Assembly: GCA_036785375.1 (NCBI GenBank)
Contig: JAWMAR010000116.1
Coordinates: forward strand, 2,046,001 to 2,110,000
Reading direction: 5' to 3'
DNA length: 64,000 nt
Source: Leucoraja ocellata
Lineage: Eukaryota
Each line of letters begins with the position of its first letter. The first letter of the stretch is position 1. This document shows positions 1-62,378 of the stretch, piece by piece. The notes below the pieces were generated by a model. The model was given only the letters and a program-made list of their open reading frames with translations. It made no database searches and was not told the origin of the DNA. The translations under genes and the position numbers were made by a program.

Positions 1-1
1 A

Positions 2-43400: not shown

Positions 43401-46400
43401 CCGCATCCCAAAATACTGCACCAGAGATTGCATCTGAAACTACTACAGGAGAGACAATGTCCCAAACTGCCACAGGTGTGACCATCTCTCAAACTATTGC
43501 AGTAGAGATGATGTCCCAAAGTACAACAGTGGAGACTCAGTCCCAAAGTACATCAAGAGAGACTACAGTGCATACTACTGCAGGAGAGACAACGTCCAGT
43601 ATTAATGCAGGAGAGAGCACGGCCCATTCTACTGGAGAAGAGACAACATCACAAACTAGTGCTGGAGAGATGGCTTCTGAAATTGCTATTGGAGAGACAA
43701 TGTCCCAAACTCCAGCAGGAGAAATCACATCCATAACCACAGAAGGAGAGACCACATCCCAACGTACAACACGGCAGATATCGTTTCAAACTACGGCAGG
43801 AGAGATTATATCCCAATCTTCTGAAGGTGCGACAACATCCCAAACTATCACAGAAGAGAGCTTGTCTCAAACTACAATAGGACAGACGATATCCCAAATT
43901 ACTGCAGGAGAGACAACGGCCGAAACGACTGCAGCAGAGAACACCGCCCAAACCTCTGCAGGAGAGACAACGATAAAAACTACTACAGGAGAGATCGTGT
44001 CTCCAACTACTGCAGAAGAGACTACATCACGAACTATTGAAGTAGAGACCATGTCCCAATCTACAACAGGAAAAATAATTTCGCAAAGTACTGAAGAAGA
44101 AAGCACATCTAAAATTACCATAGGAGAGACCGCGTCCCAAACTACTACAGGAGAGACCATGTCCGTAATTACAACAGGGGAGTTGATGTTTCAATCTACT
44201 ACAGGAGAGACCACAACCCAAACAATTGCACCAGTGACCACGGCCCAAGCCACTACAAGTGAGCTGACATCTGAAATTACTACAGCAGAGACAATGTCCC
44301 AAACTAGTTCAGTAGTGACAATATCACAACCTCCTGAAGAACAGACCATGTTCCAATCTTCTACTGAAGAGATCACATTCCAAACTACAACAGGAGAGAC
44401 CATGTCCCAATCTACTACATTTGAGGCCAAATCCCAAAATACTGCACCAGAGATCACATCTGAAACTACTAAAGGAGAGACAATGTCCCAAACTGCCACA
44501 GGTGAGACCACCTCCCAAACTATTGCAGGAGAGATAATGTCTCAAAGTACAACAATAGAGACTCAGTCCGTAAGTACATCAAGAGAGACTACAGTGCAAA
44601 CTACAGCAGGAGAGACCATGTCCCAGAAAACAGCGGGAGAGACAACGTCTCAAACAACTACAGGAGAGACAATGTCTAAAATTAATGCAGGAGAGAGCAC
44701 AGCCCATTCTACTAGAGGAGAGACAACATCCCAAACTCGTGCTGGAGAGAATGCATCTGAAACTACTACCGGAGAGACCATGTCCCAAACTCCTGCAGGA
44801 GAAATCACATTCATAACCACAGAAGGAGAGACCAAATCCCAACGTACAACAGGACAGACATCATCCCAAACTATGGCAGGAGAGATCATATCCCAAACTA
44901 CTGAAGGAGCGAAAACATCCCAAACTATCACAGAAGAGAGTTTGTCTCAAACTACAATAGCACAAACGATATCCCAAATTACTGCAGGAGAGACAACGGC
45001 CGAAACTACTGCAGCAGAGAACACCGCCCAAACTTCTGCAGGAGAGACAACGACAAAAACTACTACAGGAGAGACCATGTCTCATACTACTGCAGAACAG
45101 ACTACATCACAAACTATCAAAGTAGAGACCATGTCCCAATCTACAACAGGAAAAATCATTTCCCAAAGTACTGAAGAAGAAACCATGTCCAAAATTACCA
45201 TAGCAGAGACCGCGTCCCAAACTACTGCAAGAGAGACCATGTCCCAAATTACAACAGGGGAGATGATGTTTCAATCTACTACAGGAGAGACCACATCCCA
45301 AATTACTGCAAGAGAGATCACATCTGAAACTGCTACAGGAGAGACAATGTCCCAAACTACAACAGTTGAGACGACGCCCCAAACTACTGCAGTAGAAATC
45401 TTATTCCAAACTACTGCAGGGGAGATGATTTCCCAAAGTACAACAGGAAAGACTACAGTCCACACTATTGCAGGAGAGACCGGGTCCCAGAGTACAACAG
45501 GAGATACAATGTCTCAATCTATTACTGGAGAGACCACATCCAGAACTATTGCAGGAGAGACTACGGCCCATTCTACTGGAGGAGAGACAACATCCCAAAC
45601 TACTGCTGAAGTGACCAAGGCCCAAAGTACTACAGTAGAGACAACATCTCTAAGTCCAGAAGGAAAGATCACATCGCAACATACAACAGGACAAACATCC
45701 TCCCAAACTACTTCACGAAAGATTGTGTCCCAAACTACTGAAGGAGAGACAACATCCCAAACGATCACAGATGACACTATGTCTCAAACAACAGGGCGCA
45801 TGATGTCCCAAACTGCACCAGAGACCACAGCCCAAACTACTGCCGGAGAAACCACAGCCCAAACTCAGAAAGGAGAGACAACATTAAAAACTACCACAGG
45901 AGAGACCACGACCCAAACTACTGTAGGAGAGACCACATTCCTAACTACTGAAGGAGTGATCATGTCACAATCTATAACTGGAAAAATAATTTCCCAAAGT
46001 ACTGACGAAGAATCCACGTCCACAACTACTGTAGGAGATACCACGTCCCAAATTATTGCAGGAGGGACCATGTCCCAGAGTACAACAGGAGAGACGATGT
46101 CTCAATCTACTATAGTAGAGACAACATCGCAAACTACTGCAGGAGAGACCACAGCTCAAATTACTGCAGGAGAGATGATGTCCCAAACTACAGTAGGAGA
46201 GTCTATGTCCCCAAGTACAACAGGAGAGACCACACCCAATACTTCTGAAAGAGAAACCATATCCCAAAGTACGACAGGAAGGACAATGTCCCAAACTGCA
46301 ACAGGTGAGACGATGGCCCAAACTACAACAGGAGAGACAATGTTCCAAATTACTACAGGAGAGACCATGTCAAAAACTACCACCGGAGAGATCAGGTCCC

Positions 46401-47897
46401 AAAGTACTGCAGGCGAGACCACATATCTAATTACTGAAGGAGAGACCATGTCCCAAGCTACAACAGAAAAAATCATGTCCCAAAGTACTGAAAATGAAAT
46501 CACCTCCCAAATGTCTGCAGGAGAGACCACATCCCACCCTACAACAGGACAGACATCATCCCAAACTACTGCAGGAGAGATCATGTCCCAAACTACTAAA
46601 GGAGAGACCAGAGCCCAAACTAGTAAAGGAGACACCATTTCCCAAAGTACAACAGGAAAAGTCATAACCCAAAGTACTGGAGGAGAATCCTCCTCCCAAA
46701 CTATTGCAGTAGACAGCAGATCCCAAACTACCATGGAAGGGATCATATCCCTAACTACTGCAGGAGAGACCACATTTCAAACTACTGCAGAATGGACCAT
46801 GGCTCAAACTACTGCCAGAGCGATGATGCCCCAATCTACAGCAGAAAACCCAATGTCCCAAAGAACAACTGGAGAGACCGCAAACCAAACTACTGCAGGA
46901 GAGACAACGTCAAAAACTACCACAGGAGAAATCATGTCCCTCTCTACTACAGGAGAGATCACATCCTTAACTACTGCAGGAGAGATTATGTCCCTATCTA
47001 CAACAGGAAGAATTATTTCCCAAAGTTCTGAAGAAGAATCCACATTCCAAACTATTGCAGGAAAGATCAAGCCCCAAAGTACAACAAGAGAGACCACATC
47101 CCAATCTACTGCAGGAGAGATGATGTCACAAGCTGGAACAGGAGAGAACACAACCCAAACTTTCACCAAACAGGTCATATCCCAAACAACTCTGACTGAG
47201 GCTACACCCCAAACTTCTCCAACTGTGATCACATCCCCAAAACCAATCAATATACCATCTACTTTTACCACAAGCAACTCTTCATTCACAACAAGGACGA
47301 CTCCCACACCAACCTTAACGTTAACTTCATCAAGCATACCAAACTCATTCACAATTGCTACCACAGCAAGCGCCATAGCAAGCACATTTACCTCTCCACA
47401 TACAATGGCAATGACAATCAAAAGACCAACCTCATCGAGGATTACCAACAAAACCACTCCAGTTACAGCTACTACAGCAAACTCACCACTCACAAGGACC
47501 ACAATAACTGCAACCACCAGTGCTGCCACACCAAATACTAGAACATCCTCAGTTACGACAACCATCAGACCTGCAACTACCTCCACAACCATCAGACCTA
47601 CCACTTCCACTACAGCTATCACAACTACCACTGCCACAACCATTGCTTCATCCAATTCCTCCACACCCAACACACCAAGAACTTCTACAACAATCACACC
47701 AACCACATCCATCACAACCACCACACCAACCATCACCACCATAACCGTCACTTCAACCACAGCCAACAAACCAATCATTACCGCCATACTAGGCAAGGTC
47801 ACCAACCAAACCACTACCACCAAACCAGTGAAAATTACCACAACTCCTCCAGCTATTAGACCAAGCACCACTGAATCTACGCCTGATCCATCCTGTG
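2..47897 (+). CDS. Giant mucin (PTS-type) exon of a transmembrane mucin; 5' end lies upstream of the window
   Basis: Frame is open from base 2 (ACA TCA TTT GAG...), so the ATG at 23 is internal. No stop for about 47.9 kb; T/S/E/Q/G/A/M-rich 9-aa repeats. Ends ...GAT CCA TCC TGT G|GTAAGC (phase-1 donor at 47898), where composition switches abruptly to intronic. Confidence 0.93.
21434..42169 (+). repeat. 12 tandem copies of a 1728-bp (576-aa, 64 x 9-aa) higher-order repeat
   Basis: TIAPVTTAQ marker at 21434+1728n up to 42170; shadow ORFs recur exactly every 1728 bp (21897, 23625 ... 40905); manual count of one unit gives 64 nonamers. Confidence 0.95.
42170..44221 (+). repeat. Two 1026-bp (38-monomer) deleted variants of the higher-order repeat
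   Basis: Period changes to 1026 bp (markers 42170, 43196, 44222; shadow ORFs 41485, 42511, 43537); 702 bp (26 monomers) missing per copy. Confidence 0.92.
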
Positions 47898-47956
47898 GTA
47901 AGCAATTTCATTTTTCATTTAAAAAAACTGAGCAAACATCCTTTACTTGCAAAGAA

Positions 47957-48112
47957 NNNNNNNNNNNNNNNNNNNNNNNNNNNNNNNNNNNNNNNNNNNN
48001 NNNNNNNNNNNNNNNNNNNNNNNNNNNNNNNNNNNNNNNNNNNNNNNNNNNNNNNNNNNNNNNNNNNNNNNNNNNNNNNNNNNNNNNNNNNNNNNNNNNN
48101 NNNNNNNNNNNN
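47957..48112. other. Assembly gap (156 N)
   Basis: Run of N 59 bp into the intron after the giant exon. Confidence 0.99.
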
Positions 48113-48158
48113 AGTATATATGTGTATATAGATGCTGTGTAGGAAGGAATTGTTTCTT

Positions 48159-48246
48159 TAGGTGTCGACCTGAAAAGTCACCTATTCCTTTTCTCCAGAG
48201 ATGCTGTCTGACCATCTGAGTTACTCCAGCATTTTGTGTCTATCTT
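48159..48246 (+). mobile_element. Degenerate Penelope-like terminal-repeat fragment
   Basis: Matches the ...gaccc gaaacgtcacccattccttctctccagagatgctg...gagttactccagcattttgtgtctatc motif also seen at 51170-51252 and 58595-58680. Confidence 0.6.
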
Positions 48247-48249
48247 GTA

Positions 48250-48592
48250 TATAGATACTGCCTGACTTGTTTTTCAAGCATTTTCTGTATTTATTTTTAT
48301 CAATATATGTTGACAAAATATAAAATATATTGATAATATGTTGATTAAAAAAAATAATATATATATTTATATATTTATCAATATATATTATCAATATTAT
48401 TTTATCAATATATATATAATATTGATAATATATTTTGATAAATATATATATATATATAACTATATATACTATTAATATATTTTAAATTTTGTCAATGTCC
48501 ATTATATATATCTATATATATTGATAAATATAAATGCATATAGAAAAATAAATACAGAAATTGCTGGCAAAACAGGTCAGGAAGTATCTACA
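48250..48592. repeat. About 50-bp imperfect inverted repeat flanking a very AT-rich low-complexity spacer
   Basis: Left arm tagatactgcctgacttgtttttcaagcattttctgtatttattttt versus reverse complement of right arm aaaaataaatacagaaattgctggcaaaacaggtcaggaagtatcta; spacer is mostly A/T. Confidence 0.75.
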
Positions 48593-48704
48593 GATAGAGA
48601 AACAGTTAATGTTTCTGGTCTCCTCGCTTTCACCGGGTTCTCTTTTTCTTAGATCTGATGAAGCAATCCAACAATCCTTGATCATTTTGAATCACAAAAT
48701 ACAT

Positions 48705-49095
48705 CACCCATGTTTAAATTTATGTTTCTCAGTTTTAAATGACCTCCTCTTTATTCTTAGACTGTGGCCCCTGGTTCTGGACTCCCCCAACATTGGGAAC
48801 ATTTTTCCTGCATCTAGCTTGTCCAGTCCTTTTATAATTTTATACGTTTCTATAAGATACCCTCTCATCCTTCTCATTTCCAGTGAATACAAGCCCAGTC
48901 TTTCCAATCTTTCCTCATATGACAGTCCCGCCATCCCTGGGAATAACCTCGTGAACCTAAGCTGCACCACCTCAATAGCAAGGATGTTCTTCCTCAAATT
49001 AGGAGACCAAAACTGCACACAAAACGTGAGATGTGGTCTCACCGGGGCCTTGTACATCTGCAGAATGATCTCTTTACTCTTATACTCAAATCCTC
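48705..49095 (-). mobile_element. CR1-type LINE ORF2 C-terminal fragment
   Basis: Minus-strand translation LYKAPVRPHLTFCVQFWSPNLRKNILAIEVVQLRFTRLFPGM...LSYEERLERLGLYSLE is the typical CR1 ORF2 tail. Confidence 0.9.
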
Positions 49096-49237
49096 ACTCC
49101 TATACTCCTTACAGCTGCTACACAGTCAAGTGTACATTAAAGTGAACCATTTTTATTTCCCAAGGATGTGTTGTTAATGGACGTCTTAATTAAGAAATTA
49201 AGTCAGTTACTATTAATGAAATTTCTTTCATTTTCAG

Positions 49238-49492
49238 TACCCGTGAAGTTAATTCGTGTGAATTTGATCAGAGTAAAAAGTGATGAAATTTCGATTTCCT
49301 GGGAAACGTCTTTAAATGTCAAAGTTGTTTATAACGCCACTCTCTTCATATCTGATGTTCAAATCTCCAGTTTTATGACATATAAGAAAAAGGCAATATT
49401 TAGAGATCTACAATTGGGTGTGCAATATCGAGTTGTTGTTACGGTGAGAACTTGCGATCAGCCACACATCATCCAGAGAACAATCATAACAA
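49238..49492 (+). CDS. Mucin exon: fibronectin type III-like domain
   Basis: ttttcag| acceptor and |gtaagt donor; 255 nt, phase 1-1. VPVKLIRVNLIRVKSDEISISW...VVYNATL...AIFRDLQLGVQYRVVVTVRTC fits the FN3 pattern (W, Y, L-x-x-G-x-x-Y). Confidence 0.85.
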
Positions 49493-49654
49493 GTAAGTCT
49501 TGAGAGATAGTGCCGGAGTAACAAAACATGGCAAATATGTACAATGGACAAGGATAGCTTCACAAGGAAACAAATGTATTTGACCTGAAACGTAACTCTG
49601 TTTTTCTTTCAACAGAAGCTGTTTGCAATTATGAGGTTTTTTTAAATTTAGATG

Positions 49655-49885
49655 CACAAGGTCATATTTTTCACACGTAGGGCGGTGGTTATATGAAACA
49701 AGCTGCCGGAGGAGATAGTTGAGGCTGGGACTAGTGCAACATTTAAGAAACAATTAGATAGGACAGTTTTAGAGGGATATGGGCCAAACGCAAGCAAGTG
49801 GGACTAGTGTAGATGGGACATGTTGGTCGGCGTGGGCAAATTGGGCCGAAGGGCCTGTTTCAACACTGTATGACTCTATGACTTT
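49655..49885 (+). mobile_element. LINE (CR1/HER1-like) 3' end
   Basis: ttttcacac...gagatagttgaggc...atttaagaaaca...gggccgaagggcctgttt...tgtatgactctatgact; the tail is shared with the SINEs in this window. Confidence 0.7.
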
Positions 49886-50391
49886 AAGTGACCCAAATGA
49901 TGGTCATGCAGGATAGAAATGGTGACCAAGTAGCAGATAATTCAATGTCATGTTAATTCTGGACATCATTAGTAGTGTAGAGCAGAGCTACGGAGGGAGA
50001 ATACAGAGATTAAGCCTTAACAAAGCAGAATTAAAAATATGTTATTTTTGATTAGATGCATGTTCGTGCAATTATAAATTAATTACTCCACAGAGAATTC
50101 TGTTCTCTTTGCAATTCTTTTGGGTGGAGGGGAGAATAGAGTCCCCATCCACTTCACCTTGCAAGCCACATTGCCTGCTGCCGACCATTCACCAGGAGTA
50201 TTTATGTGCTACACTGGGAGATGCACTTATTCCATCCCAAAGTAATAGAGAGAATTTATATAATTTTAAAATTGTAACCTCTTCTAGTGTTCGTTGAGTT
50301 TTGTACTCTAGAACACCAGTTAGCATTTCATTGTTCATTTCATTTTTTCTTCTATATAAACCAGCTATTACCCCAGTTAGGCCCCCCTTGG

Positions 50392-50792
50392 TTATGACTG
50401 ACCATGGGTGATGCATCCTGGTTGGATGCAAGCCTGGGCGATGTCATATGGAGGACAGGCTGTTGCCCATGCAGCATGTTCCCCCTCTCCATGTCGCTGA
50501 TCGATCCAAAGGAACAGGGCCGTTACAGTTTGGCACCGGCGCCGTTGCAGGAGCTGCCAGAGCGAGGTTGTAGACAGCCCCTTAGGGGCTCTGACTCCAG
50601 ATTTTCTTGAGGTTTACTCCTGGAGCCTTTTCCATGACTGGATATGGCCACAAGGCAGTGGACGTTTTAAATCAGTTTTCCCTCTCCTAGATGGACTGCC
50701 TTCCCAGGCTGACGAGCCCCTTCTGCCCGAGACTCGTGGGGGCGGGAGCGTCTACCTTCCCGTGCAGGTCTATAGCACCTGCCCACTGCCCA
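50392..50792 (-). mobile_element. Probable RTE-clade retroelement 5' region or derived element
   Basis: GC-rich island. Minus strand carries GGGGCTCGTCAGCC..GGCAGTCCATCTAGGAGAGGGAAAACTGATTTAAAAC, resembling from memory a motif in RTE/Rex3 5' UTRs. Confidence 0.4.
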
Positions 50793-51065
50793 ACTATTAC
50801 CCTATAGAGAGTATATAGAGAGATATACAAAGCCCTTACCCCTCTCCCTGCTTCCCCTACATTCTTCAGCCTTCTTCCCCCTCCCCTGTGCCCAGCCTGG
50901 ACTTGCACTTATTTCTCCCCTTCCGCATACATTCCTTCCTCTAGCTTCACAATTCACAACTCTTCAATCCTTTCATCTCACTCCTTTTGCCTTTTCATCA
51001 ATGCCCTTCATCCAACCTTCTGCCTATCATTACCCCTCGCGTGTATCAACCTTTTACCTGCCAGT

Positions 51066-51291
51066 GATAGACACAAAATGCTGGAGTAACTCAGCGGGAC
51101 AGGCAGCAAGTCCAGAGAAAAGGAATGGGTGACGTTTCGGGCCGAGTCCCTTCTTCAGACTTAAGAAGGGTAGCGACCCGAAACGTCATGCATTTCTTCT
51201 CTCCAGAGATGCTGCCTATCCCGCTGAGTTACTCCAGCATTTCTTGTTTATCTTCGGTGTAAACCAGCATTTGCAGTTGTTTTCTACATGG
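51066..51291. mobile_element. Fold-back Penelope-derived element with 13-bp TSD and opposed hammerhead-like cores
   Basis: 51066-51158 is the approximate reverse complement of 51160-51252; direct repeat TTTACCTGCCAGT at 51053-51065 and 51292-51304. Confidence 0.8.
51128..51160 (-). ncRNA. Minimal type I hammerhead ribozyme-like motif
   Basis: Minus strand GU-CUGAAGA-A-GGG(ACUCGG)CCC-GAAAC-GUC^AC: intact CUGANGA and GAAA boxes, stem II, GUC site, only 2-bp stem III as in Penelope minimal hammerheads. Confidence 0.55.
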
Positions 51292-51423
51292 TTTACCTGC
51301 CAGTCCTTGTCTTGCCCCTTCTTTCTTCCATATTTCTTCCCCCCTCCCCCACCCCCAAGCTACAATTAGTCTGAAGGGGGATCTCAACCAGAAAGGTTAT
51401 CTATCCATGTTCTCCAGAGATGC

Positions 51424-51643
51424 TCTCTGGAATTCTCTGCCACAGAAGGTAGTTGAGGCCAGTTCATTGGCTATATTTAAGAGGGAGTTAGATGTGGCCC
51501 TTGTTGCTAAAGGGATCAGGGGGTATGGAGAGAAGGCAGGTACAGGATACTGAGTTGGATGATCAGCCATGATCATATTGAATGGCGGTGCAGGCTCGAA
51601 GGGCCGAATAGCCTACTCCTGCACCTATTTTCTATGTTTCTAT
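51424..51643 (+). mobile_element. 5'-truncated CR1 3' end
   Basis: ctctggaattctctgccacagaagg...gggccgaatagcctactcctgcacctattttctatgtttctatg; near-identical to 58316-58530; possible ATGCT TSD. Confidence 0.85.
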
Positions 51644-51664
51644 GCTGCGTTACCCACTGAGTTA

Positions 51665-51996
51665 TGGGCCTGTCCCACTTAAGCAACTTTTTCGGCAACT
51701 GCCGGCACCCGTCATAGGTCTTTGCAGGTCGCTGAAAATTGTTGAAAATCCAGTGGCGACCAGAACAAGGAATGACTCTTTGGGCGACTACTCATGACCG
51801 TACAGGCTTCATCCCTCGACATGTCGCCAGGGTGTCGCCTGTATGGTCGTGAGTAGTCTCCTGAGTCGCCCAAAGAGTCGTAGCGTCTTTCTGGTCGCCG
51901 CTGGATTTTCAACATGTTGAAAACTTTCGGAGACCTGCAACAATCTATGACGGGTGCCGGCAGTTGCCGAAAAAGTCGCTTAAGTGGGACAGGCCA
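51665..51996. mobile_element. PIF/Harbinger-type palindromic MITE
   Basis: TIRs TGGGCCTGTCCCACTTAAGC.ACTTTTTCGGCAACTGCCGGCACCCGTCATAG and its reverse complement; near-palindromic throughout; TTA TSD at 51662-64 and 51997-99. Confidence 0.85.
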
Positions 51997-52195
51997 TTAT
52001 TCCAGCACTTTGTGCCTTGTTTTTGTAAAACTTTGTATCTAGTGAATACACTAACTCCGCCACATCTTTGTTTCTGACCTCAGAAATGCCTAGTGTGTTA
52101 CAAAGTCCTTAATGTCATATGATATCTCAAAATATTTTGTCAAATATAAAATTCTAGTATTAATTAATATTTACTGTTTTTCTCACTCTCCAAAG

Positions 52196-52308
52196 GTTCC
52201 AAAGCTTTGGAAGCAAAAACAAGAATTATAAACAGAGAGTTTATACAAGCATATGAAGACAGGAATAGTCCTGAATATAAAGGATTTGCTAACAAATTCA
52301 TTCAAGAT
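52196..52308 (+). CDS. Mucin exon: SEA domain 1, N-terminal half
   Basis: ccaaag| acceptor, |gtaagt donor, phase 1-0. SSKALEAKTRIINREFIQAYEDRNSPEYKGFANKFIQD has the SEA F..xxxD..S.EY pattern. Not in the ORF track. Confidence 0.88.
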
Positions 52309-52541
52309 GTAAGTCTTTGCTCATCCTTTGTATTGTGAAAGAGTTAAGTAAAAATGTAATATCTGGGCATCACAATTCCCACTATATCACTCTTCTACTT
52401 AAATCTTAGAACATGCCACCAAACAACACAAGAATAGCATTTTCTCTAAGATTGCGCTCATCATTTCCTGATTAGGAGACGACATTAATTGTTGGCCTTG
52501 CTAATCATTTCCAGTGTATGTAAGTGAATTAACAAAAATAT

Positions 52542-52860
52542 GGGTGGCATGGTGGCACAGCGGTAGAGTTGCTGCCTTACAACGCCAGGGACATCAGTTC
52601 AATCCCGACTACGAGTGCTGTCCATATGGAATTTGTACGATCTCCCCGTGACAGCGTGGGTTTTCTCCGAGATTTTCAGTTTCCTCCCACACTATAAAGA
52701 CTTACAGGTTCGTAGGTTAATTGGCTTGGTATAAATGTAAGTTGTCCCTAGTGTGTCAAGGATAGTGTTAATGGGCGGGGATCGCTGGTCAGCACGGACT
52801 CGGTGGGCCGAAGGACATATTTATCTCTATACAAAACTAAACTAAATTGAATTAAACTAA
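52542..52860 (+). mobile_element. tRNA-derived SINE (HE1/V-SINE-like)
   Basis: A box TGGCACAGCGG, B-box-like AGTTCAATCCC, conserved core, gggccgaagg 3' tail and (ctaaa)n end. Confidence 0.85.
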
Positions 52861-53033
52861 ATCTGTTAGGACATATCGGATGATAACATCCAGTGCATTG
52901 AGGAAAGTTGGCATGTTTATTCCCATGCAATTGTCGATGTCAATTCACAAGGAATAGGGTTAAGGTTGGAATGAAGATCAGAATAAAATACAAATTGAGA
53001 TGCTAATAACAGATTGTTTTTGGTTTCTTCCAG

Positions 53034-53253
53034 ATGCTGAGCAGACTAGGACAAAATTTCAGAGAGCTATACAAACATGGAAACATGAGAATCTTCATAA
53101 ACAGCATTTTGCCAGGGAGTGTGAATGTAAACTTTACGATCGCTTATGCATCAGATGAAGATGTCACTTTTCTTGAAATTAAAAGAGCATTCATCAATTC
53201 TTTAAAGACGAGTCAAGAATTTAACATAGATTTTCAAAATACAACTATAACAG
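53034..53253 (+). CDS. Mucin exon: SEA domain 1, C-terminal half
   Basis: ttccag| acceptor, |gtaagg donor, phase 0-1. Contains ILPGSVNVNFTIAY (SEA G/S-V-x-V motif at 53115-53129). Confidence 0.9.
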
Positions 53254-53524
53254 GTAAGGTCTTTGAAAGCAAACCAAGGGAATGGTAAATGTTAGGAATT
53301 GTGTATGAAAACTACAATATAATTGTCCAGTCCTCTAAATATAGTCTCCTAGTCATCCCTTTCTTTCCTCTCCCTATCAATGGTCATGTTCAATTCAGAT
53401 CCATCACAGTTCAGAACCTATAAAGTTGTCTCTCATCTCTGACTTACTACCATTCCCTCAGTCTTGATCATTGCTTTGAAGGCTTTTGATGCCTTTCCCC
53501 ACAGTGGAATATTTTGATTCTGTT

Positions 53525-53698
53525 GTGGGGAGCGTTCATGTTGAATTCTATAATGTGTTGAGTCATTTTCTCTTATTTTTAATTTTTCTATGGATGTACG
53601 GAAACTTAATTACTTCTTTTATGTAAAGCACTTTGATTTCAACGCAAGTTGATTTAAACGTGCTATATAAATAAAATGTACTTACTCACTTACTTACT
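53525..53698 (+). mobile_element. L2-like LINE/SINE 3' end
   Basis: tgtaaagcactttg...gtgctatataaataaa followed by a (tact)n tail. Confidence 0.5.
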
Positions 53699-54160
53699 AA
53701 TAAAACCTAATTTCCCTGTGGCATATTTAAGCATGGTCTACAAGCAATGAAAGCACCAAGTGAGTGTTGGTTAATAAAGGGCACACCCTTGTAGTCGGCT
53801 CTTGGTTACATCAATCACTACTATAGTTAGAGCTTACCAACACTCCCAGTTTGATTCAAGGTCCACTCCCAAGTTTACTACTTGTGGCATGCATCCAAGT
53901 TTTTCCTCCCTTGTTTGTGCTCATTTTGTGTTTGTGAAGTGCCTGGAACATTTTTGATGGATGATTTATGACTGGATCTTAAAGTCACATCACGTTTTCT
54001 TTTTCAAGCATATTTGAAAAATCGGGGTGATGAAATAATATACTCCGTGCAGAACAATGCCAAATCTGAATAGAAAATGAGGTGAATTGCGAGTTCATAG
54101 TTAGCTACCAGAATGAACGGGTGTAACAGAAAGGCAAGAACGGAGGAAGGAGAAAGATGA

Positions 54161-54462
54161 AGGGCGGCACAGTAGAGCGGTGGAGTTGCTGCTTATGGTG
54201 CCAGAGACCTGGGTTCGATCCTGACTATGGATGCTCTCTGTACGGAGTTTGTACGTTCTCCATGTGACCGTGTAGGTTTTGTCTGGTTGCTCCGGTTTCC
54301 TCTTGCACTCCGAAGACGTACAAGTTTGTAGTTCAAATGGCTTCGGTTAAATTGTCCCTTGTGTGTAGGATAGTATTAGTGTGTGGGGTGATCGCTGGTC
54401 AGCGCGGACTAGGTGAGCCGAAGGGCCTGTTTCCGCGCTGTATCTCTAAAGTCTAAAGTCTA
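54161..54462 (+). mobile_element. tRNA-derived SINE (HE1/V-SINE-like)
   Basis: gggcggcacag..., B box GGTTCGATCC, tail gaagggcctgtttccgcgctgtatctctaaagtctaaagtctaa. Confidence 0.88.
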
Positions 54463-54842
54463 ATGAAAAGCCTTGATATTAAAGTTAGGATAAATCAGGA
54501 AAATTAGTGTCGTAATCTGTCGTATCCAACCAGAGTACAAGGCTGAAATCTACTGTCACAGAGAGAACGTGCAGACTCCACATGGAGAGTTCTGAAGGTC
54601 TGTACTGAAATTCAGTCACTGGAGCTGTGCGACTGTGCGACCCAAGCTGCCTCATTCAGAAGCTCCTGTAGCAGAATCTACAGATTCTCCGCAGAACTGA
54701 TTAATTACCTTAGCACATACAGATCATCAATGAAAGCAAGTCATCCTTGACTCTAATAAGCCACAAGTATAACTTGCCCAGACTTTGACTAAACTAATTT
54801 AACATTTTAAAAGTTGAATTCATTTTCTAACAGTTCTCTAGC

Positions 54843-55183
54843 TTTAGGCTTTTTTAGGCTTTATGTTTAGAGATTCAGTGTGGAAACAGGCTTTTCGGCC
54901 CACCGAGTCCCCACCGACCAGTGATCACCCTGTACACTCGCACTATCCTACACACTAGGGACAATTCACAATTTACAGAAGCTAATTCAGGAGTAATTCA
55001 GGAGTAATTCATGAATGAATTAACCTACAATCCTGTATCTCTTTGGAGTGTGGAAGGAAACCAGTGCACCCGGAGAAAATCCACGTGATCACAGGGAGGA
55101 CATACAAACTCCGTACAGACAGCACCCATAATTAGGATTGAACCCGGGTCTAGCGCCTCAACTGCTGCGCCATTGTGCTGCCC
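54843..55183 (-). mobile_element. tRNA-derived SINE, antisense copy
   Basis: Reverse complement of the 54161 family, with an internal (taattcaggag) duplication. Confidence 0.85.
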
Positions 55184-55266
55184 TCTTCTTTAAAATTGAT
55201 CTCATCTGTTTCTGCATGGCATATTTCTCTATTCCTTGTACTTTAAGCTTGGTTCTTTTATTACAG

Positions 55267-55404
55267 AGAGAGACAGTTGTCAACCCGGGCTAAATGACTG
55301 TTCAGGTAATGGAACTTGTATCAGGCTGAATGCGTCCTATACCTGCCAATGCAATGTTGGGTTCGAAGATACAAGCTCTGACGTCCCGGGAAGAGTGTGT
55401 GAAG
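55267..55404 (+). CDS. Mucin exon: EGF-like domain 1
   Basis: ttacag| acceptor, |gtagga donor; 138 nt, phase 1-1. ERDSCQPGLNDCSGNGTCIRLNASYTCQCNVGFEDTSSDVPGRVCE has 6 Cys in EGF spacing. Confidence 0.92.
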
Positions 55405-55488
55405 GTAGGACTTTACCTGAGTTTAAAACACTGCGTGAAGCTGAATTTTTGCCTCCAGTAATTGTTTTAATCTAAATTCTTGTTCCAG

Positions 55489-55649
55489 ATGTTGATGAGT
55501 GTCAGACGGGAAACAACACGTGCTCTGAATTTGCCGCCTGCACCAATAACCCTGGCAATTTCTCATGCAGCTGTTTACAGGGAATTATAGATACCAATCC
55601 CGCAAACCCAGGAGCTGAACAGTTGAACCAGCGGCTGTGTGGACAGTAG
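55489..55649 (+). CDS. Mucin exon: Ca-binding EGF domain 2 (3' boundary unresolved)
   Basis: ttccag| acceptor after an 84-nt intron. DVDECQTGNNTCSEFAACTNNPGNFSCSCLQGIIDTNPANPG, then no strong phase-1 donor; reads on AEQLNQRLCGQ to TAG at 55647-55649. Confidence 0.8.
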
Positions 55650-55873
55650 GGGTGCTCAGCGTAGAATAGGCTGAGACTTTTGGCAGAGCTTCAATGAGAC
55701 ATTCAGTTGAGGTTACAAGAACTTCTTGAAATCTTGAGCAGCTTATTTTTTTGTAGTCAGGAATATTTATTTGTCTTGTGCACCTAGAATGGAACAGTGA
55801 AATTCTTACTTACTGCAACTTTAAAGGCACACTAAACACATCAGCTGTAAAAAAAAAATACTATAAATTATGT

Positions 55874-56075
55874 TCATAAGACATAGGAGCAGAATTAGGC
55901 CATTCAGCCCATCGAGTCTACTTCGCCATTCAATCATCTACCATTCCCACTCAACCCCATTCTCCTGCCTTCTCCCCATAACCCTCTGACACCCTTACTA
56001 ATCAAGAATTGCCTTAAATATACCTAATGACTTTGGCTCCACAGCCATCTGTGGCAATGAATTCCACAGATTTAC
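55874..56075 (-). mobile_element. CR1 3' end fragment, antisense
   Basis: cataagacataggagcagaattaggccattcagccc...cttctccccata...ggcaatgaattccacagatt is the reverse complement of a CR1 3' tail. Confidence 0.75.
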
Positions 56076-56218
56076 CAGTTATCAGTTATACTTATTAATA
56101 ACTAAGCAAATCATCTGGATGATACTTTGGATTGCAATATCATAGTTTGGTTTACTTAGTATAAACCAGACCACGATATTGCAAGCCAAAATTATATAAG
56201 GGAATCTGGAGGGACAGA

Positions 56219-56272
56219 GAATGAATGAACGAATGGATGAATGAATGAATGATTGAATGGATGAATGAATGA
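56219..56272. repeat. Imperfect (GAAT)n microsatellite
   Basis: gaatgaatgaacgaatggatgaatgaatgaatgattgaatggatgaatgaatga. Confidence 0.85.
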
Positions 56273-56467
56273 GAGTGAAGGAGGGATCCAACATGATCAT
56301 GTGGACACTTAGATGTGTCCAAATGTTCGATGTAGATGTGTACGTCTCACCTCTAAATTCTGTCATTTCTTAGACAAAAAAAGGCTCATAATAGTTTTTT
56401 TAACCATTGATCAATGAAAAGAATCCTTGCTCAGTATTAAATAAGGAATTGTTATATTTATCCACAG

Positions 56468-56548
56468 ATCCAAATGCATGTTTTGTTAGTCAGAGAGATA
56501 CCTGTGCTTTATCTGACTGCTTGATGACTACAGTCAGTGACTGCAAAG
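56468..56548 (+). CDS. Mucin exon: short four-Cys linker
   Basis: ccacag| acceptor, AAAG|gtaagt donor; 81 nt, phase 1-1. DPNACFVSQRDTCALSDCLMTTVSDCK. Confidence 0.75.
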
Positions 56549-56962
56549 GTAAGTACTTTGACGTTTCCCAGATCTTCTGTGATGCCATCCAGATTTGCGG
56601 CCATTCTCATTGCTTCCACAAACTTACTGTATCTCCTTCCTTTGAACATTGAACGTGATCACTGTATGACCACAGCATTAAAACTGAGGTGAAGCAAAAC
56701 AAATTCTCATTCTAGAGTAGCGTCGGGGTTCATACTGAGGTATGTTTGGTTGTCTCACACCTAAAAGATATGCTTATTGGTGATTATTGTTGCTTGATTG
56801 GCCGCATTCCATGCCTTTATCTTACAAAGCCATCGCCGCTGTGGAAGACCTGACGTTCTATCCCTTGGCATAAACTCTTCTCTTGGAATGACAGAAGTGC
56901 CAACACTTGCCCTGTCTTACAATGGGTCAATTAAAGCCTGGGATCCTCATGAGAGGGAATTA

Positions 56963-57135
56963 AGGGCAGCACGGTGGCATAGCAGTAGAGCTGCTGCCTT
57001 ACAGCACTAGAGACCTGGGTTTGATCCTGACGTAAATTGTCCGAGTGTAGGATGAAAGTCAGCGTGCAGGGAACGCTGGTCGGTGCAGACTCGGTGGGCC
57101 GAGGGGCCTGGTTTCCGTGCTGCATCTCTAAACTA
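56963..57135 (+). mobile_element. Internally deleted tRNA-derived SINE
   Basis: Head gggcagcacggtggcatagc...gggtttgatcctgac joined directly to tail gtaaattgtcc...gggccgaggggcctgg...ctctaaact. Confidence 0.8.
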
Positions 57136-57141
57136 TCCGTA

Positions 57142-57713
57142 AACTACCCCCTCCCCAGGTACCTTCCCCTGCAAACGCAGAAGATGCAACACCTGTCGCT
57201 ATACCTCATCCCTAGACTCTGTCCAGGGACCTTGACAGACCTTTCAGGTGAGGCAGAGGTTCAACTTGCACCTCCTCCAACCTCACATACTGTATCCGTT
57301 GTTCAAGATGTGGACTCTTATACATTCAGCGAGACCAAATGCAGACTGGGCGATCGTTTCGCAGAACACCTTCGCTCAGCCTGCTTGAACCAACTTGGTC
57401 TCCGGTTGCTGGACACTTTAATTCTCCTTCCCATTCCTGCACAGGCCTTTCTGTCCTCTGTCTCCGCCATTGTCAGAGTGAGGCTAAATGCAAATTGGAG
57501 GAAGGGCATCTCATAATTCGCTTGGGCAGCTTGCAGGCCCAGTGGTTTGAGTATTGATTTCTCTCACTTCAGGTAGCCCCGGCATTCCCTCTCTCTCTTC
57601 CTCTCCCCCACCAGATCGCACTAGCTACTCGTTTCACCCTACCAAACAGCTTACAATGGCCACTTTCCTTTATCATCATTACTTTCTTGATATCTTTTAT
57701 TCATTGTTCTTTA
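57142..57713 (+). mobile_element. Penelope-like element fragment: Cys-rich linker, GIY-YIG endonuclease and start of 3' region
   Basis: Across frames: PGTFPCKRRRCNTC ... YCIRCSRCGLLY(I)xETKCRLGDRFAEHLRS ... PVAGHFNSPSH ... KLEEGHLIIRLGSL, typical of Penelope GIY-YIG; frameshifted. Confidence 0.85.
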
Positions 57714-58530
57714 CGTGGATAAATGTGAGGTTATCCACTTTGGTGGCAAAAACAGGAAAGTAGACTATTATCTGAATGATGGGGCGATTAGGAAAAGGGG
57801 AGATGCAACGAGACCTGGGTGTCATGGTACACCAGTCATTGAAAGTAGGAATGCAGGTGCAGCAGGCAGTGAAGAAAGTGAATGGTTTGTTAGCATTCAT
57901 AGCAAAAGGATTTGAGTACAGGAGCAGGAAGGTTCTACTGCAGTTGTACAGGATCTTGGTGAGACCACACCTGGAGTATTGCGTACAGTTTTGGTCTCCT
58001 AATCTGAGGAAAGACATTCTTGCCATAGAGGGAGTACAGAGAAGGTTCACCAGACTGATTCCTGGGATGTCAGGACCTTTTCATATGAAGAAAGACTGGA
58101 TAGATTCGGCTAGTACTCGCTAGAATTTAGAAGATTGAGGAGGGATTCTTATAGGAACTTACAAGATTCTTAACGGGTTGGACAGGCTAGATGACAGGAA
58201 GATTGTTCCCGATGTTGGGCGAAATCCAGAACAAAGAGGTCACAGTTTAAGGATAAGGGGGAAATATTTTAGGACTGAGATGAGAAAAACATTTTTCACA
58301 CGGAGAGTGGTGAATCTCTGGAATTCTCTGCCACAGAAGGTAGTTGAGGCCAGTTCATTGGCTATATTTAAGAATAAGTTAGATGTGGTCCCTTGTGGCT
58401 AAAGGATCAGGGGGTATGGAGAGAAGGCAGGTACAGGATACTGAGTTGGATGATCAGCCCCATGATCATATTGAATGGTGGTGCAGGCTCGAAGGGCCGA
58501 ATGGCCTACTCCTCACCTATTTTCTATGTT
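57714..58530 (+). mobile_element. 5'-truncated CR1 LINE inserted in the Penelope-like element
   Basis: DKCEVIHFG...RDLGV...LYRILVRPHLEYCVQFWSPNLRKDILAIEGVQRRFTRLIPG...FFTRRVVNLWNSLP plus the 3' UTR; many 1-2 nt indels. Confidence 0.92.
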
Positions 58531-58682
58531 TATTTCTCCACATCACCGTCTATATCTCCCGTTTCCCTTATCCCTAACCAAGTCTGAAGAAGGGTCTCGA
58601 CCCAAAACGTCACCCATTCCTTCTCTTCAGAGATGCTGCTCTGTCCAGCTGAGTTACTCCCAGCTTTTGTGTCTATCTACCT
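58531..58682 (+). mobile_element. Resumed Penelope-like 3' terminus with degenerate hammerhead core
   Basis: gtCTGAAGAaGGGTctcgACCCaaaacgtcacc (GAAA box mutated to AAAA), then ...gagttactcccagcttttgtgtctatc. Confidence 0.75.
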
Positions 58683-58788
58683 ATCTCTAAACTAAATGTG
58701 AATCACACCAGTGGTTTCTAACTATATTTGCCCAGTTTCTCTGTAATTTCCAGTGCAATTAGCTAATAACTTGTTACTGTTCCAACAG

Positions 58789-58904
58789 ATAAAATTGCAT
58801 TCAGAATGAAGCAACAACACTGAGATCCAAAGAGTTCACTACCGATCTGAAAACTCCTGGAAGTGAGGCATACAGGAATTTATCTGCCCGATTTTATAAA
58901 TGCT
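58789..58904 (+). CDS. Mucin exon: SEA domain 2, N-terminal half (frameshifted as assembled)
   Basis: caacag| acceptor, |gtaaag donor; 116 nt, phase 1-0 like SEA1a. DKIAFRMK / ATTLRSKEFTTDLKTPGSEAYRNLSARF / INA needs two compensating 1-nt shifts; literal frame stops at TGA 58821-58823. Confidence 0.7.
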
Positions 58905-59004
58905 GTAAAGCAAAATTAAATTTCTACTCAGATTTGTTCTTAAGCATTTATTTTTGTCAGATACATTGTGTTAGTATCAGTCCTTCCATCTAGTGAGGCA
59001 TTCC

Positions 59005-59345
59005 AAGATTAAGAGGGAGGCCATTCGGCCCATTAAGTTCGGTTTACAGGGGAGCAATCCATCATTCCAATTCCCCTTATTTTCCGTAGCTCTGAAACCC
59101 GTTCTCCCTCACACCTTCCCACTAACTCCCCTTTGACTCCAATTGCCTTTAACCTATTGTAAGAGGTATATTATAGTCGCCAGTTAGCCCACCAGTACCT
59201 CCTTGGATGTGGGAGGAAATCAAGGAACCGGGCTAAACCCATGTGATTACAGGGAGAATTGTAAACTTCACACACATAGCATCTGAGGTCAGGAGTGAAC
59301 CCAGGAATCAGGAAAGGAATGTGGACAGCTGCACTATACTGCTGT
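59005..59345 (-). mobile_element. Old degenerate SINE, antisense
   Basis: aggccattcggccc tail; ggatgtgggaggaaa...cagggagaa...aaacttcacaca...aggtcagga.tgaaccca core and B box in reverse. Confidence 0.6.
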
Positions 59346-59700
59346 CATGCTCATTCATTGAATTAATAGCAGTTGTATTTCTTTCATTTCTTTCTGTCCC
59401 AAACCCTAACCCAATTGAATCCAACATCTGAATGGAGTTACCCGAACCTCACCTTTCACCGCGGCCATGCTCAGCATCCAATGCATCATTCATCATCATT
59501 ACCACCACTGTCAATGTGCTCCCACCATTAGTCACATCTTCCTGTCCACACCCATTTCTGCTTTCTGCGGAGACCATTCTCTCCACAACTTCTTGGTTCC
59601 CTGGCTTAAATATATGAGGTTCTGAGAGGGTTTGAAAGGATGGTCAAATAGAGATGCCTGGAAATAGGAATGTAGTTTCAGAATAATGGGTCACCTATTC

Positions 59701-60546
59701 AAGTTCAAGTTCAAGTTTACATTTATTGTCACTGTACCAATTGTACAGCGAGATTTGGGTTGCCATGCCAACATACAAATTAAAAAGAACACAACATACG
59801 ATAGAATTTTGCATGAATACCCCCACACATCAGCGCGAATCAACGTTTCCCACAGTGAGGGACGGCAATACAATTTCAGTCATCTTCCTCTATGTTCACC
59901 CGTGGTCGGGGCTATTCAGGCCTCCGCAGTCGCTGCAAACGGCAGCCCGATGTTCGGGCTCCTCTCGCCGGATGACGGAACTCCGGCGTCGGAAGAACAC
60001 TCTCAGCGGCTTGGAGTTCCGAATCGGCCGCTTCCTACCGGAGACCGCGGCTTCCGAAGTCCACAGGCCGAACTGGGCGGAGCTCCGCACGGCAATCCTC
60101 GGCGAAAGATCCCAGGGCCCCGCGTTGTTAAAGTCAGCACCGCCCATGGCTGGAAGCTCCGCAGACCACAGCTCCACAGCTTTCAAGTCAGCAGTCCCAG
60201 CACTCCACAGCTCCAACACGTCGACCCCCAGTAATGCATCGCCCGCTCCGCGATGGTACTTCCGTGCTGTGCCGCTGTTGAAGCTGAAGCTCTGGCCAGT
60301 CACCGGCAGGAAAGGCCGTGCCAATCTAGATGGTAGGCCGCTAGGAGGGGGCAAAGACGCATCCTCGACCAGGTAGTGACTGAGATAAACAGTTTCCCCC
60401 TTCCCCCCCCCCCCCCATTCCCCCACATAAAGAGACTAAAAGGACCTCCAAAACAAAACTTTTGACAGACTAAAAAATAAAAAAAGAATGAAAGGACCAA
60501 ACAGCTGCAGGCAAGGCAGCCAATACTCAATGGTGTCCCCTTCTGA
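59701..60546 (-). mobile_element. CpG-rich non-autonomous retroposon inserted in an old CR1 fragment
   Basis: Minus strand ends AATAAA...(TTGAAC)n; possible CTATTC TSD at 59695-59700 and 60547-60552; flanks 59615-59700 and 60553-60795 join as degenerate CR1 3' sequence. Confidence 0.6.
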
Positions 60547-60841
60547 CTATTCCTAATTGAGCTGAAGATTAATCCCTTCTCTCAGTGTGTGAATCCTTTG
60601 GAGTTCTTTATCCCAGAGAGCTGTGGAGGTGGAGTGAATATAATCAAAGCAGAGAGTGATGGATATTTCAAATACAAAGGAAAGAATGGGTGTCAGGGCA
60701 GAGTAGGAAATGTGAAGATAGGACCAGCCACCATCTTATTGAATGGAGAAAAGACTCAAGGGGCTAATTAACCCACTACAGCCCCTCATGTTTATAATGC
60801 ATTTTAGTGGCAATTAAATAATATGTATGCTTTGCTTTTAG

Positions 60842-61038
60842 GTTGTGCCAACCACGCGAGCCAAGCTTAATGACGTTAGCTTTAATATCAGCAATCATTG
60901 GCTTTCAAAGAGGAAGTGTGCAGGTGAACTTTCTGGCTGTCTTGAACAGGAACTCAACGGTCAATGTCTCCACATTGCAAAGGGCTGTTGGTGACGCAAT
61001 CAAACAATTTGATGGTAACAGTTCAGTCATCATGACAG
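60842..61038 (+). CDS. Mucin exon: SEA domain 2, C-terminal half (one frameshift as assembled; GC donor)
   Basis: ttttag| acceptor. VVPTTRAKLNDVSFNIS / IIGFQRGSVQVNFLAVLNRNSTVNVSTLQRAVGDAIKQFDGNSSVIMT, with an extra A near 60893; GSVQV at 60912-60926; donor ACAG|GCAAGT, phase 1. Confidence 0.75.
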
Positions 61039-61130
61039 GCAAGTGTTGACGTGGTTGTTATGATTTAATTAATTCAGTTAATCGTTTGGTGTCCAGTATC
61101 TCAATGGAATTGTTCATATCGCCTCAAAAC

Positions 61131-61895
61131 GTGGCACAGTGGCACAGTTAGCAGAGCTGCTGCCTGCCAGGTCCAGTGGACCCAGGATCAGTCCTGATCT
61201 TGGGTGCTGTCTCTGTAGTGTGTGCATATTTTTTTCTGTGCCAGTGTGGGTTTCCGCTGGGTAGTCTGCTTCTCTCCCACCTTGTATTGGTGTGCACCTG
61301 GGTGTGGTATATTGGCCATTTTAAAATTATCCCTCCTGTCTGCACACGTGGTCAAATCTGACTGAAGTTGATGGTAATCTGCGAAGAATAACATTGAATA
61401 ATCCCGCCCATTCCTCTCAAAGCCCTTCCCCTGTGCCCTGACTGGACTTGCACCCATTTCTTCCCCCTCCCCTAACAGCAATATTCCCTATCTCCGGTCT
61501 CTCAATTCAAACCTTGTTTATCCCTATCCCACACATTTTGTCTTTTCATCTCCGGCCTTTGTCCAACCATTTGTGCCTTTCAACTCCCATCCCCCACCCT
61601 CACCCGTATCCACCCATCACTGACCAGACTTTGTGCTGCCCTTACTCTCTTACAGTTCCCACCCAAAAACTCACCTATTTGTGTTCTTCAGAGAAGCTGC
61701 ATGTCCCACTGAGTCACTCCAGCACTTTGTCTCATTTTTCATAAGCCAGCATCTGCAGTTCCTTGTGTCTTTGTGTCTAAAATTGAATTTATGTCAAATT
61801 GGCATTGATTAGTGTAAGTGGGTTCTTGCTGGTTGGCACAGACTCTATAGATCAAAGTGCATGTTTCTGTGCTGTATCACTCATTATTCTATGAC
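61131..61895 (+). mobile_element. Degenerate SINE (head 61131-61345, tail about 61815-61895) with an intervening Penelope-like 3' fragment (about 61420-61770)
   Basis: gtggcacagtggcacag...gggtgctgtctctgt head; middle is homologous to 50880-51050 and ends ctgagtcactccagcactttgt...ccagcatctgcagttcc. Confidence 0.55.
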
Positions 61896-62133
61896 TGACT
61901 CTCCTCTCTGTTTACTGAAGTTGTGAAGCTAGAGGATTGACGAGGTGCAGATCGTATAGCTTGGGATGGGATGTAGGAGGAGGGTGAGGGGAGGGTAGAG
62001 ATAGATACAAAGTCAGCCAGGGCTCAGGGGAGGGGAGGGGAGGAACAGGCGGGGGAGGGGCTTCCGGGGGAGAAAGGGGGGGGGGGGGGGGGGTGATTTT
62101 ATTCTTAATGACAGTGATCTTTTTCTATATCAG

Positions 62134-62378
62134 GTACAACACTTACTACCACTGAGGCTCCTATCCAACCCCAGACTGTTCCAACAGTGCAAGTCAAGCC
62201 GGTCTCTCAAACCCCTGGATGGAAAATAGCTGTGATCGTTTTGGGAGTTATTCTGGGTGTAGCTGTTTTAATAAGCCTGGCAATTGTAGCAGTAAGGATC
62301 TACCTCACGAAAATAACCAAGAATTATAACATGGATCCATCTGATATTATACATCAAATCAACTATTCCAGTATTTAG
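62134..62378 (+). CDS. Terminal coding exon: T/P-rich stalk, transmembrane helix, short cytoplasmic tail
   Basis: tatcag| acceptor, phase 1. GTTLTTTEAPIQPQTVPTVQVKPVSQTPGWK-IAVIVLGVILGVAVLISLAIVAV-RIYLTKITKNYNMDPSDIIHQINYSSI*, stop TAG at 62376-62378. Confidence 0.9.

Follow-up and report, generated by a model that had tools for sequence, protein, structure and literature searches.

A probable UMODL1-derived family of SEA transmembrane mucins, with a 53-kb exon in the skate Leucoraja ocellata

UMODL1, or olfactorin, combines EMI, WAP, FN3, cbEGF, SEA and zona pellucida (ZP) domains with a transmembrane (TM) segment (available portion of PMC8874799). Among the membrane mucins, MUC3, MUC12 and MUC17 form a cluster between ACHE and TRIM56 in mammals; MUC17 has 4,073 amino acids and extends up to 1 µm, and SEA cleavage, shedding and PDZ anchoring are described for MUC1 and MUC17 (available portion of PMC13643018). 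MUC13 lies beside HEG, and an unplaced chicken protein with a proline-, threonine- and serine-rich (PTS) domain and an SEA domain, which might be a member of the family described below, is also reported (available portion of PMC1552070). As far as their accessible text goes, the mucin surveys list no transmembrane mucin with FN3, and they found membrane mucins outside mammals to be few. The present analysis concerns a gene, mucin A, in a 64,000-nucleotide window of the Leucoraja ocellata genome (assembly GCA_036785375.1, contig JAWMAR010000116.1, here C116, positions 2,046,001-2,110,000). For positions beyond the window, 2,046,000 is subtracted from the C116 position, so that negative values lie upstream.

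We consider it quite probable that mucin A belongs to an old, unnamed family of SEA transmembrane mucins derived from UMODL1, in which the skate gene stands out by the great size of one exon and by a loss, specific to its lineage, within the cbEGF exon. A fuller account, in which a UMODL1 duplicate founded a jawed-vertebrate family that persisted from chimaeras to birds but disappeared in mammals, with a skate member of about 18,200 residues encoded largely by a 53-kb exon, may equally well hold or fail.

Exon structure of mucin A

The PTS domain is encoded by a single exon of 53,307 nt (17,768 codons) without a stop, which starts at C116:2,040,591, 5.4 kb before the window, and runs from -5,409 to 47,897 on the plus strand (1..47897 within the window). 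In the window its frame, frame 2, has no stops over 1-47,900, compared with 580 and 779 in the other two plus-strand frames. Serine and threonine make up 43% of the encoded residues and proline 2.9%; there are two cysteines, of which one is the last residue of the exon and precedes FN3. The repeat is a 27-nt unit (consensus GETTSQTTA) nested in a 1,728-nt higher-order repeat; between about kb 21 and 38 the 1,728-nt units form a near-perfect array in which neighbouring units differ by 0-51 mismatches. To our knowledge the largest human coding exon is that of MUC16, at about 21.7 kb, and the skate exon is over twice that size. The sequence-only reading of the window that preceded this work had passed over the size of the exon. 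A short run of N in the intron 3' of it touches none of the exons described here.

A second copy of the locus is found on another contig, C81, with 97-99% identity. The 3.44-Gb assembly probably keeps both haplotypes; the locus is doubled, and several ZP matches are paired too. The C81 copy of the PTS exon, 53,736 nt long, is likewise open. Over 14.7 kb of alignment the two copies differ by 60 synonymous and 161 nonsynonymous substitutions (pN/pS 0.98). None of these 221 creates a stop, compared with 8.3 expected (P about 2.5e-4). The reading frame is under selection: amino-acid changes in the PTS domain are neutral while stops stay absent.

Upstream, a 49-nt signal-peptide exon is predicted at C116:2,025,929-2,025,977 (-20,071..-20,023, plus strand) from its homology to the first exon of the neighbouring paralogue B, and mucins A, B and C each open with a homologous short exon of this type. 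We infer that this exon is spliced to the PTS exon, and with the cbEGF exon skipped (see below) the predicted protein has a computed length of about 18,240 residues. Other candidates for the signal exon were rejected: that at -15,628 reads ATC in C81 and is duplicated nearby, and those at -42,042 and -22,396 match the paralogue's first exon no better than shuffled sequences.

Nine small exons follow 3' of the PTS exon on the plus strand. All were located, between 49238 and 62378, in the order that had been read from the sequence, PTS-FN3-SEA-EGF-cbEGF-Cys4-SEA-TM, with phases 1-1, 1-0, 0-1, 1-1 and so on. The FN3 exon (49238..49492; 255 nt, phase 1-1) has a weak Pfam fn3 match (0.013). The first SEA domain is split into SEA1a (52196..52308; 113 nt, phase 1-0), of the same length as the first halves of the UMODL1 SEA domains, and SEA1b (53034..53253; 220 nt, phase 0-1), which carries the loop motif PGSVNV and is assigned to SEA in the ESM Atlas (0.91). 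The EGF exon (55267..55404; 138 nt, phase 1-1; Pfam EGF 1e-6) is followed by the remnant of a cbEGF exon (55489..55649; Pfam EGF_CA 3e-8), which runs to a TAG at 55647-55649, and by a four-cysteine module, Cys4 (56468..56548), conserved from sharks to birds. The second SEA domain consists of SEA2a (58789..58904), frameshifted on C116 and intact, at 113 nt, in C81, and SEA2b (60842..61038), with the motif RGSVQV, a GC-AG donor and a +1 insertion, again intact, at 196 nt, in C81. The last exon (62134..62378), identical in C81, encodes the stalk, the transmembrane helix and a short tail ending in YSSI and a stop. The exons downstream of the PTS exon are 61-82% identical to those of a stingray orthologue and, with the exception of the cbEGF exon, are intact in C81.

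When the exons were searched one by one against Pfam, EGF and EGF_CA passed the cut-off, the SEA halves gave weak values (0.011-0.076) and SEA1b gave no match; in full-length orthologues SEA is found at E 1e-13. A Pfam SEA search of the genome returned one match, probably because SEA is split across two exons. Sequence searches of the PDB found no SEA relative, and a homologue search with the SEA1b exon alone found none among 30 candidates. A basking-shark member of the paralogue type was modelled with AlphaFold from a 16-row alignment (pLDDT 66, falling below 50 over the EGF pair; a single-sequence prediction reached 34). Over FN3 and SEA1, the two domains that the structure matches cover, the model superposes on the FN3 of fibronectin (Z 12.5, root-mean-square deviation 2.2, 85 residues aligned), on MUC16 SEA5 (Z 11.5-11.6, deviation 3.0, 109 aligned) and on TMPRSS6 (Z 11.7). 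The FN3 and SEA folds are clear in this predicted homologue structure.

Some smaller points concern the same region. A possible exon at 49,617 was discarded, having no counterpart in paralogues or orthologues. The intron between EGF and cbEGF (55405-55488) is 84 nt long, a multiple of three, with one TAA in skate, and two shark database models (P0007 and P0010) read through it in frame, as an annotation artefact or a real retention. Both genomic copies have the GC-AG intron after SEA2b (61039), where paralogue C uses GT. Three RNA runs from related organisms, of which 1-6% each was used, are dominated by intronic repeats, with near-zero depth in exon-only bins, and are uninformative on expression.

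Origin beside UMODL1 and spread across vertebrates

The gene order at the locus is ZBTB21-UMODL1-mucin A-B-C-RUNX1. A complete UMODL1 lies upstream on the same strand (C116:1,940,637-2,002,552) and comprises EMI, cbEGF, FN3 repeats, two SEA domains, ZP, TM and a stop. Its EMI domain is recognised by Pfam at 1.6e-5, and most of its exons share 88-100% identity with those of Amblyraja radiata UMODL1. The stop lies near -43,448, 43 kb upstream of the window and 23 kb ahead of the predicted first exon of mucin A. The exons of the EMI/WAP region, 96-105 kb upstream of the window, are in this separate gene, and none was found inside mucin A. The sequence-only reading had left room for a ZP domain spliced in further downstream; a tblastn search with UMODL1 from -200k to +264k places ZP upstream only, and both of the matches on C116, among 35 genome-wide, lie upstream of the window. 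Mucin A, lacking ZP, EMI and WAP, is a tandem neighbour of UMODL1 and not UMODL1 itself, and its second SEA takes the place of ZP, as proposed.

The relation to UMODL1 is closest in one module. A profile of the family aligns with the last Cys-FN3-SEA-EGF module of UMODL1 (hhalign probability 99.91, E 2e-34, 245 columns, 30% identity), bearing out the earlier suggestion of a UMODL1-like module. SEA1 is split into 113 and 220 nt with phases 1-0-1 in mucin A, mucin C and UMODL1, and SEA2a also has 113 nt. The FN3 exons measure 255-258 nt, and the linker exons of UMODL1 end in a cysteine, as does the PTS exon. In the ESM Atlas the top rank goes to an uncharacterised chordate fn3+SEA cluster (0.92); UMODL1 comes next (0.81), which serves only as a lead. 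A Cys4 profile found no match in the seven UMODL1 proteins tested. Skate and shark UMODL1 carry six to seven FN3 domains, several of them after linker exons ending in Cys; one linker contains RAKR, presumably a furin-like site.

Members of the family occur well beyond skates. A search with the sawshark orthologue P0007 scored 7,996 candidates, of which 25 pass a cut-off of 1e-10 (15 shark or ray, three bird, one tarpon UMODL1 and six adhesion G-protein-coupled receptors). A full phmmer scan gave 2,275 matches at 0.001; among the best 150, which were parsed into domains, there are at least 29 further ZP-less members. Nineteen of these are placed, in a chimaera, Conger, Esox, Dallia, Xenopus (four), Mixophyes, Geotrypetes, four turtles, two lizards, an alligator and two birds, with no mammal among the 19. 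The other ten, without an assigned species, most resemble members from birds, frogs, eels, sharks, turtles or lizards; two of them, amniote-like at about 50% identity, could be anything. This distribution suggests that the family was lost in mammals. Members from eel, frog, caecilian, turtle and lizard keep the order PTS-FN3-SEA-EGF-cbEGF-(Cys4)-SEA-TM; in bird members a second FN3 replaces cbEGF, and the pike and chimaera models have no SEA2. Up to four cbEGF copies in a row, or none, are found in family members.

A quick IQ-TREE analysis of 75 SEA rows, each of at least 80 residues and no more than three from any protein, places SEA1 (30 rows, SH-aLRT 92) and SEA2 (21 rows, 96) each in one group, with the SEA1 of the skate window beside a stingray protein in a starred type-A group. 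The database names of family members are inconsistent automatic labels, and literature searches found no description of a ZP-less FN3-SEA mucin family in a coverage that leaves most subscription journals outside; the available text of PMC1552070 mentions neither fibronectin nor uromodulin, and that of PMC13643018 no fibronectin. An earlier partial description is possible. The family thus appears unnamed, as had been surmised.

Several observations weigh against a UMODL1-derived mucin family and its skate member as proposed here. The tree contains no MUC1, MUC13, MUC16 or MUC17 rows, its careful search was unfinished, and the branch joining SEA1 to UMODL1 reaches a support of 86 only. The match in exon sizes is drawn from mucins A and C and UMODL1, and in a genome-wide single-exon search the first SEA exon ranked below the paralogues belongs to UMODL1, but only at E 8.9. 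For the direction of the duplication there is one lamprey UMODL1 match with ZP, and no jawless family member was seen. The position beside UMODL1 is shown directly in this skate genome only, and the splicing of the 53-kb exon and the skipping of the cbEGF exon are predictions from genomic sequence. Finally, Gly-Ser is kept in both SEA loops of mucin A while the canonical GS[V/I]VV is absent (GSVNV and GSVQV); across 49 family proteins the canonical form occurs in 7 of 51 SEA1 and 15 of 43 SEA2 domains.

Three other explanations bear on the same evidence. That the exons of mucin A are an alternative 3' end of UMODL1 would agree with their common strand, adjacent position and phase-1 compatibility, and some database models are labelled 'uromodulin-like 1' or 'UROL1'; it is highly improbable given that UMODL1 is complete with a ZP, a TM and a stop of its own, that mucins A, B and C have homologous signal-type first exons, and that a crow member begins with its own signal-like peptide. 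An invention confined to skates or elasmobranchs is barely credible, although the giant exon and the triplication into A, B and C may be lineage-specific: the same architecture is found in eel, frogs, a caecilian, turtles and lizards, with variants in birds and alligator, and the sequence-only reading erred in calling the mucin lineage-specific, its relatives extending across jawed vertebrates from chimaera to birds. It is also very unlikely that the family represents the non-mammalian orthologue of MUC3/12/17, MUC13 or MUC16, which later lost FN3. The general plan is the same (single-exon PTS, SEA, EGF, TM and a class I PDZ-like end), and the lack of mammals among the named matches could be explained by fast divergence there. 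However, the synteny comparison proposed with the sequence-only reading shows mucin A between UMODL1/ZBTB21 and RUNX1, neither in the ACHE-TRIM56 position (available portion of PMC13643018) nor beside HEG (available portion of PMC1552070), and the SEA-bearing proteins among the best 150 matches are family members, UMODL1-like or two weak outliers.

Downstream of mucin A, paralogue B (C116:2,128,987-2,158,800) has a signal-type exon and an intact PTS exon, together with FN3, SEA, EGF and a cbEGF that is truncated; up to the next gene, no TM was found for it. It also contains a decayed PTS copy broken by a LINE; the endonuclease/reverse-transcriptase frame of this element forms one reading frame with a PTS fragment (916 residues). 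Paralogue C (C116:2,160,541-2,194,960) is complete, from signal peptide through PTS-FN3-SEA-EGF-cbEGF-Cys4-SEA to TM, with all phases compatible, and has a truncated cbEGF exon ahead of an intact duplicate. RUNX1 (best PDB match E 3e-43) lies downstream of the cluster, directly 3' of it in skate, an arrangement that we take to differ from human chromosome 21. On the other side, ZBTB21/ZNF295 (E 5e-38) lies beyond UMODL1. Between these two genes, plus-strand open reading frames (L050:229-615, L050:5409-5756 and L049:178-543) have Cys-rich and RxKR motifs; the two that were scanned had no Pfam match, and they possibly represent another UMODL1-related gene or additional 5' exons.

Defects in the cbEGF and SEA2 exons

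The cbEGF exon of mucin A has five cysteines and no phase-1 consensus donor, a defect that recurs identically in the C81 copy. A contig from one of five organisms, here denoted A to E, contains 20 extra bases behind 55,611 (organism E), which supply the sixth cysteine and the donor. The 20 bases are not present in organisms B, C and D, and in organism A a contig across the site has five other letters and three gap positions. The defect is real: both genomic copies carry the same loss, a 20-bp deletion having removed the sixth cysteine and the donor in this skate lineage. The exon is probably skipped in splicing; the flanking exons are both of phase 1, and skipping would therefore keep the frame.

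The SEA2 defects are of a different kind. On C116, SEA2a acquires a stop through +2/+1 insertions and SEA2b has a +1 insertion; neither is present in C81, and both lie in a cluster of 59 one- or two-base insertions or deletions between kb 57 and 61, compared with 0-4 per kb elsewhere. Over 60,498-61,565, two letters and nine gaps separate the window from a contig of a public run. The frameshifts are probably assembly errors, a view taken because they are absent from C81 and set within this cluster; alternatively, they may mark a degenerate allele. The phases, called mostly compatible in the sequence-only reading, are so overall, apart from the missing cbEGF donor and the two SEA2 frameshifts. 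Paralogue C and the shark and ray orthologues have the full architecture; mucin A's own protein, with its broken cbEGF, probably does not.

A further possibility is that the cbEGF exon is included, so that translation stops at 55647 and mucin A, without a membrane anchor, is a secreted mucin or a target of nonsense-mediated decay, paralogue C being the membrane form. The cbEGF acceptor is indeed intact and no good phase-1 donor is left; the deletion is common to both copies and to the contigs of organisms A-D; the exon is undecayed, with two differences from organism E compared with ten in the EGF exon; and paralogue B has a similar truncation. We nevertheless regard this as unlikely. In C81 the exons for Cys4, SEA2 and TM are undamaged, with splice sites that look functional and conservation equal to that of the upstream exons. 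The read-through tail lacks conservation, a stop preceding its cysteine in organism D (C>T at 55629). Mucin A is retained here as a likely functional gene for a type I transmembrane mucin.

Predicted function and comparison with known mucins

The proposed history begins with a tandem duplication of UMODL1 in which the Cys-linker-FN3-SEA-EGF module was retained. The linker exon of the duplicate would have grown into the PTS exon, and ZP would have been exchanged for the four-cysteine module and a second SEA. In the resulting protein, O-glycans would turn the 17,768-residue Thr/Ser domain into a bottle-brush a few micrometres long, or about 4 µm if the 1 µm per 4,073 residues of MUC17 scales, carried by a short stalk of FN3-SEA-EGF-Cys4-SEA. 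The last cysteine of the PTS domain and the FN3 cysteine are conserved together, which prompts the guess that they form a disulfide. The Gly-Ser loops of the SEA domains could self-cleave under strain, acting as a shear fuse that sheds the brush; such cleavage is uncertain because the canonical motif is absent in mucin A and scarce in the family. The YxxI tail could direct apical retention or recycling, or apical anchoring. Mucin A ends in YSSI, type-A orthologues in YSN[IL] and many tetrapod members in Y-x-x-L or F, which by their consensus motifs may be PDZ or YxxPhi signals. O-glycosylation, cleavage and anchoring are proposed by analogy with MUC1 and MUC17, as presented in the available portion of PMC13643018.

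Such a family, if conserved as proposed, would supply a component so far missing from the epithelial barrier of fish, amphibians, reptiles and birds, one that Xenopus would allow to be tested and that has been hidden under labels such as 'mucin-5AC-like', 'DAN4-like', 'fibrillin-1-like', 'jagged-2-like' and 'L-lactate dehydrogenase A chain'. It would also offer a traceable path from a ZP protein to a mucin via growth of one linker exon, and a four-cysteine module; the 53-kb exon is a test case for exon definition and splicing.

Judged from its sequence, mucin A appears to have the testable features of a SEA transmembrane mucin except the canonical cleavage motif: a large S/T repeat domain in one exon, though low in proline; two extracellular SEA domains near the membrane, the second intact in the C81 copy only; a transmembrane helix with a cytoplasmic tail; and a signal exon predicted from homology between paralogues. 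Xenopus has secreted proteins in which SEA and PTS domains alternate (Lang 2007, as summarised in PMC4948705). These resemble mucin A in joining PTS and SEA in a non-mammalian vertebrate and may overlap with the family; they are called secreted, and FN3, EGF and TM are unmentioned in the available part of that summary. MUC13 and HEG1 share PTS, SEA, EGF and TM with mucin A, which adds FN3 and has two SEA domains. MUC16 is similar in its very large size, its more than one SEA and its SEA fold (Z 11.5 for SEA5), while mucin A has only two SEA domains, set apart by EGF and Cys4, has FN3, and shows 14% identity in the structural match. MUC17, MUC3A, MUC3B and MUC12 share with it a single-exon PTS, a membrane-near SEA, EGF-like domains, TM and a tandem gene cluster. 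The C-terminal S-x-I of mucin A resembles a class I PDZ motif. It differs from them in its FN3, two SEA domains, neighbours and non-canonical GS motif, and in size, its PTS domain having 17,768 residues compared with 4,073 for MUC17. The closest likeness is with UMODL1, the immediate upstream neighbour, which has the same Cys-linker-FN3-SEA-EGF module, the same SEA exon sizes and phases and, by eye, a similar short, tyrosine-bearing tail; mucin A departs from it in having no EMI, WAP or ZP and in its huge PTS domain, Cys4, second SEA and signal exon of its own.

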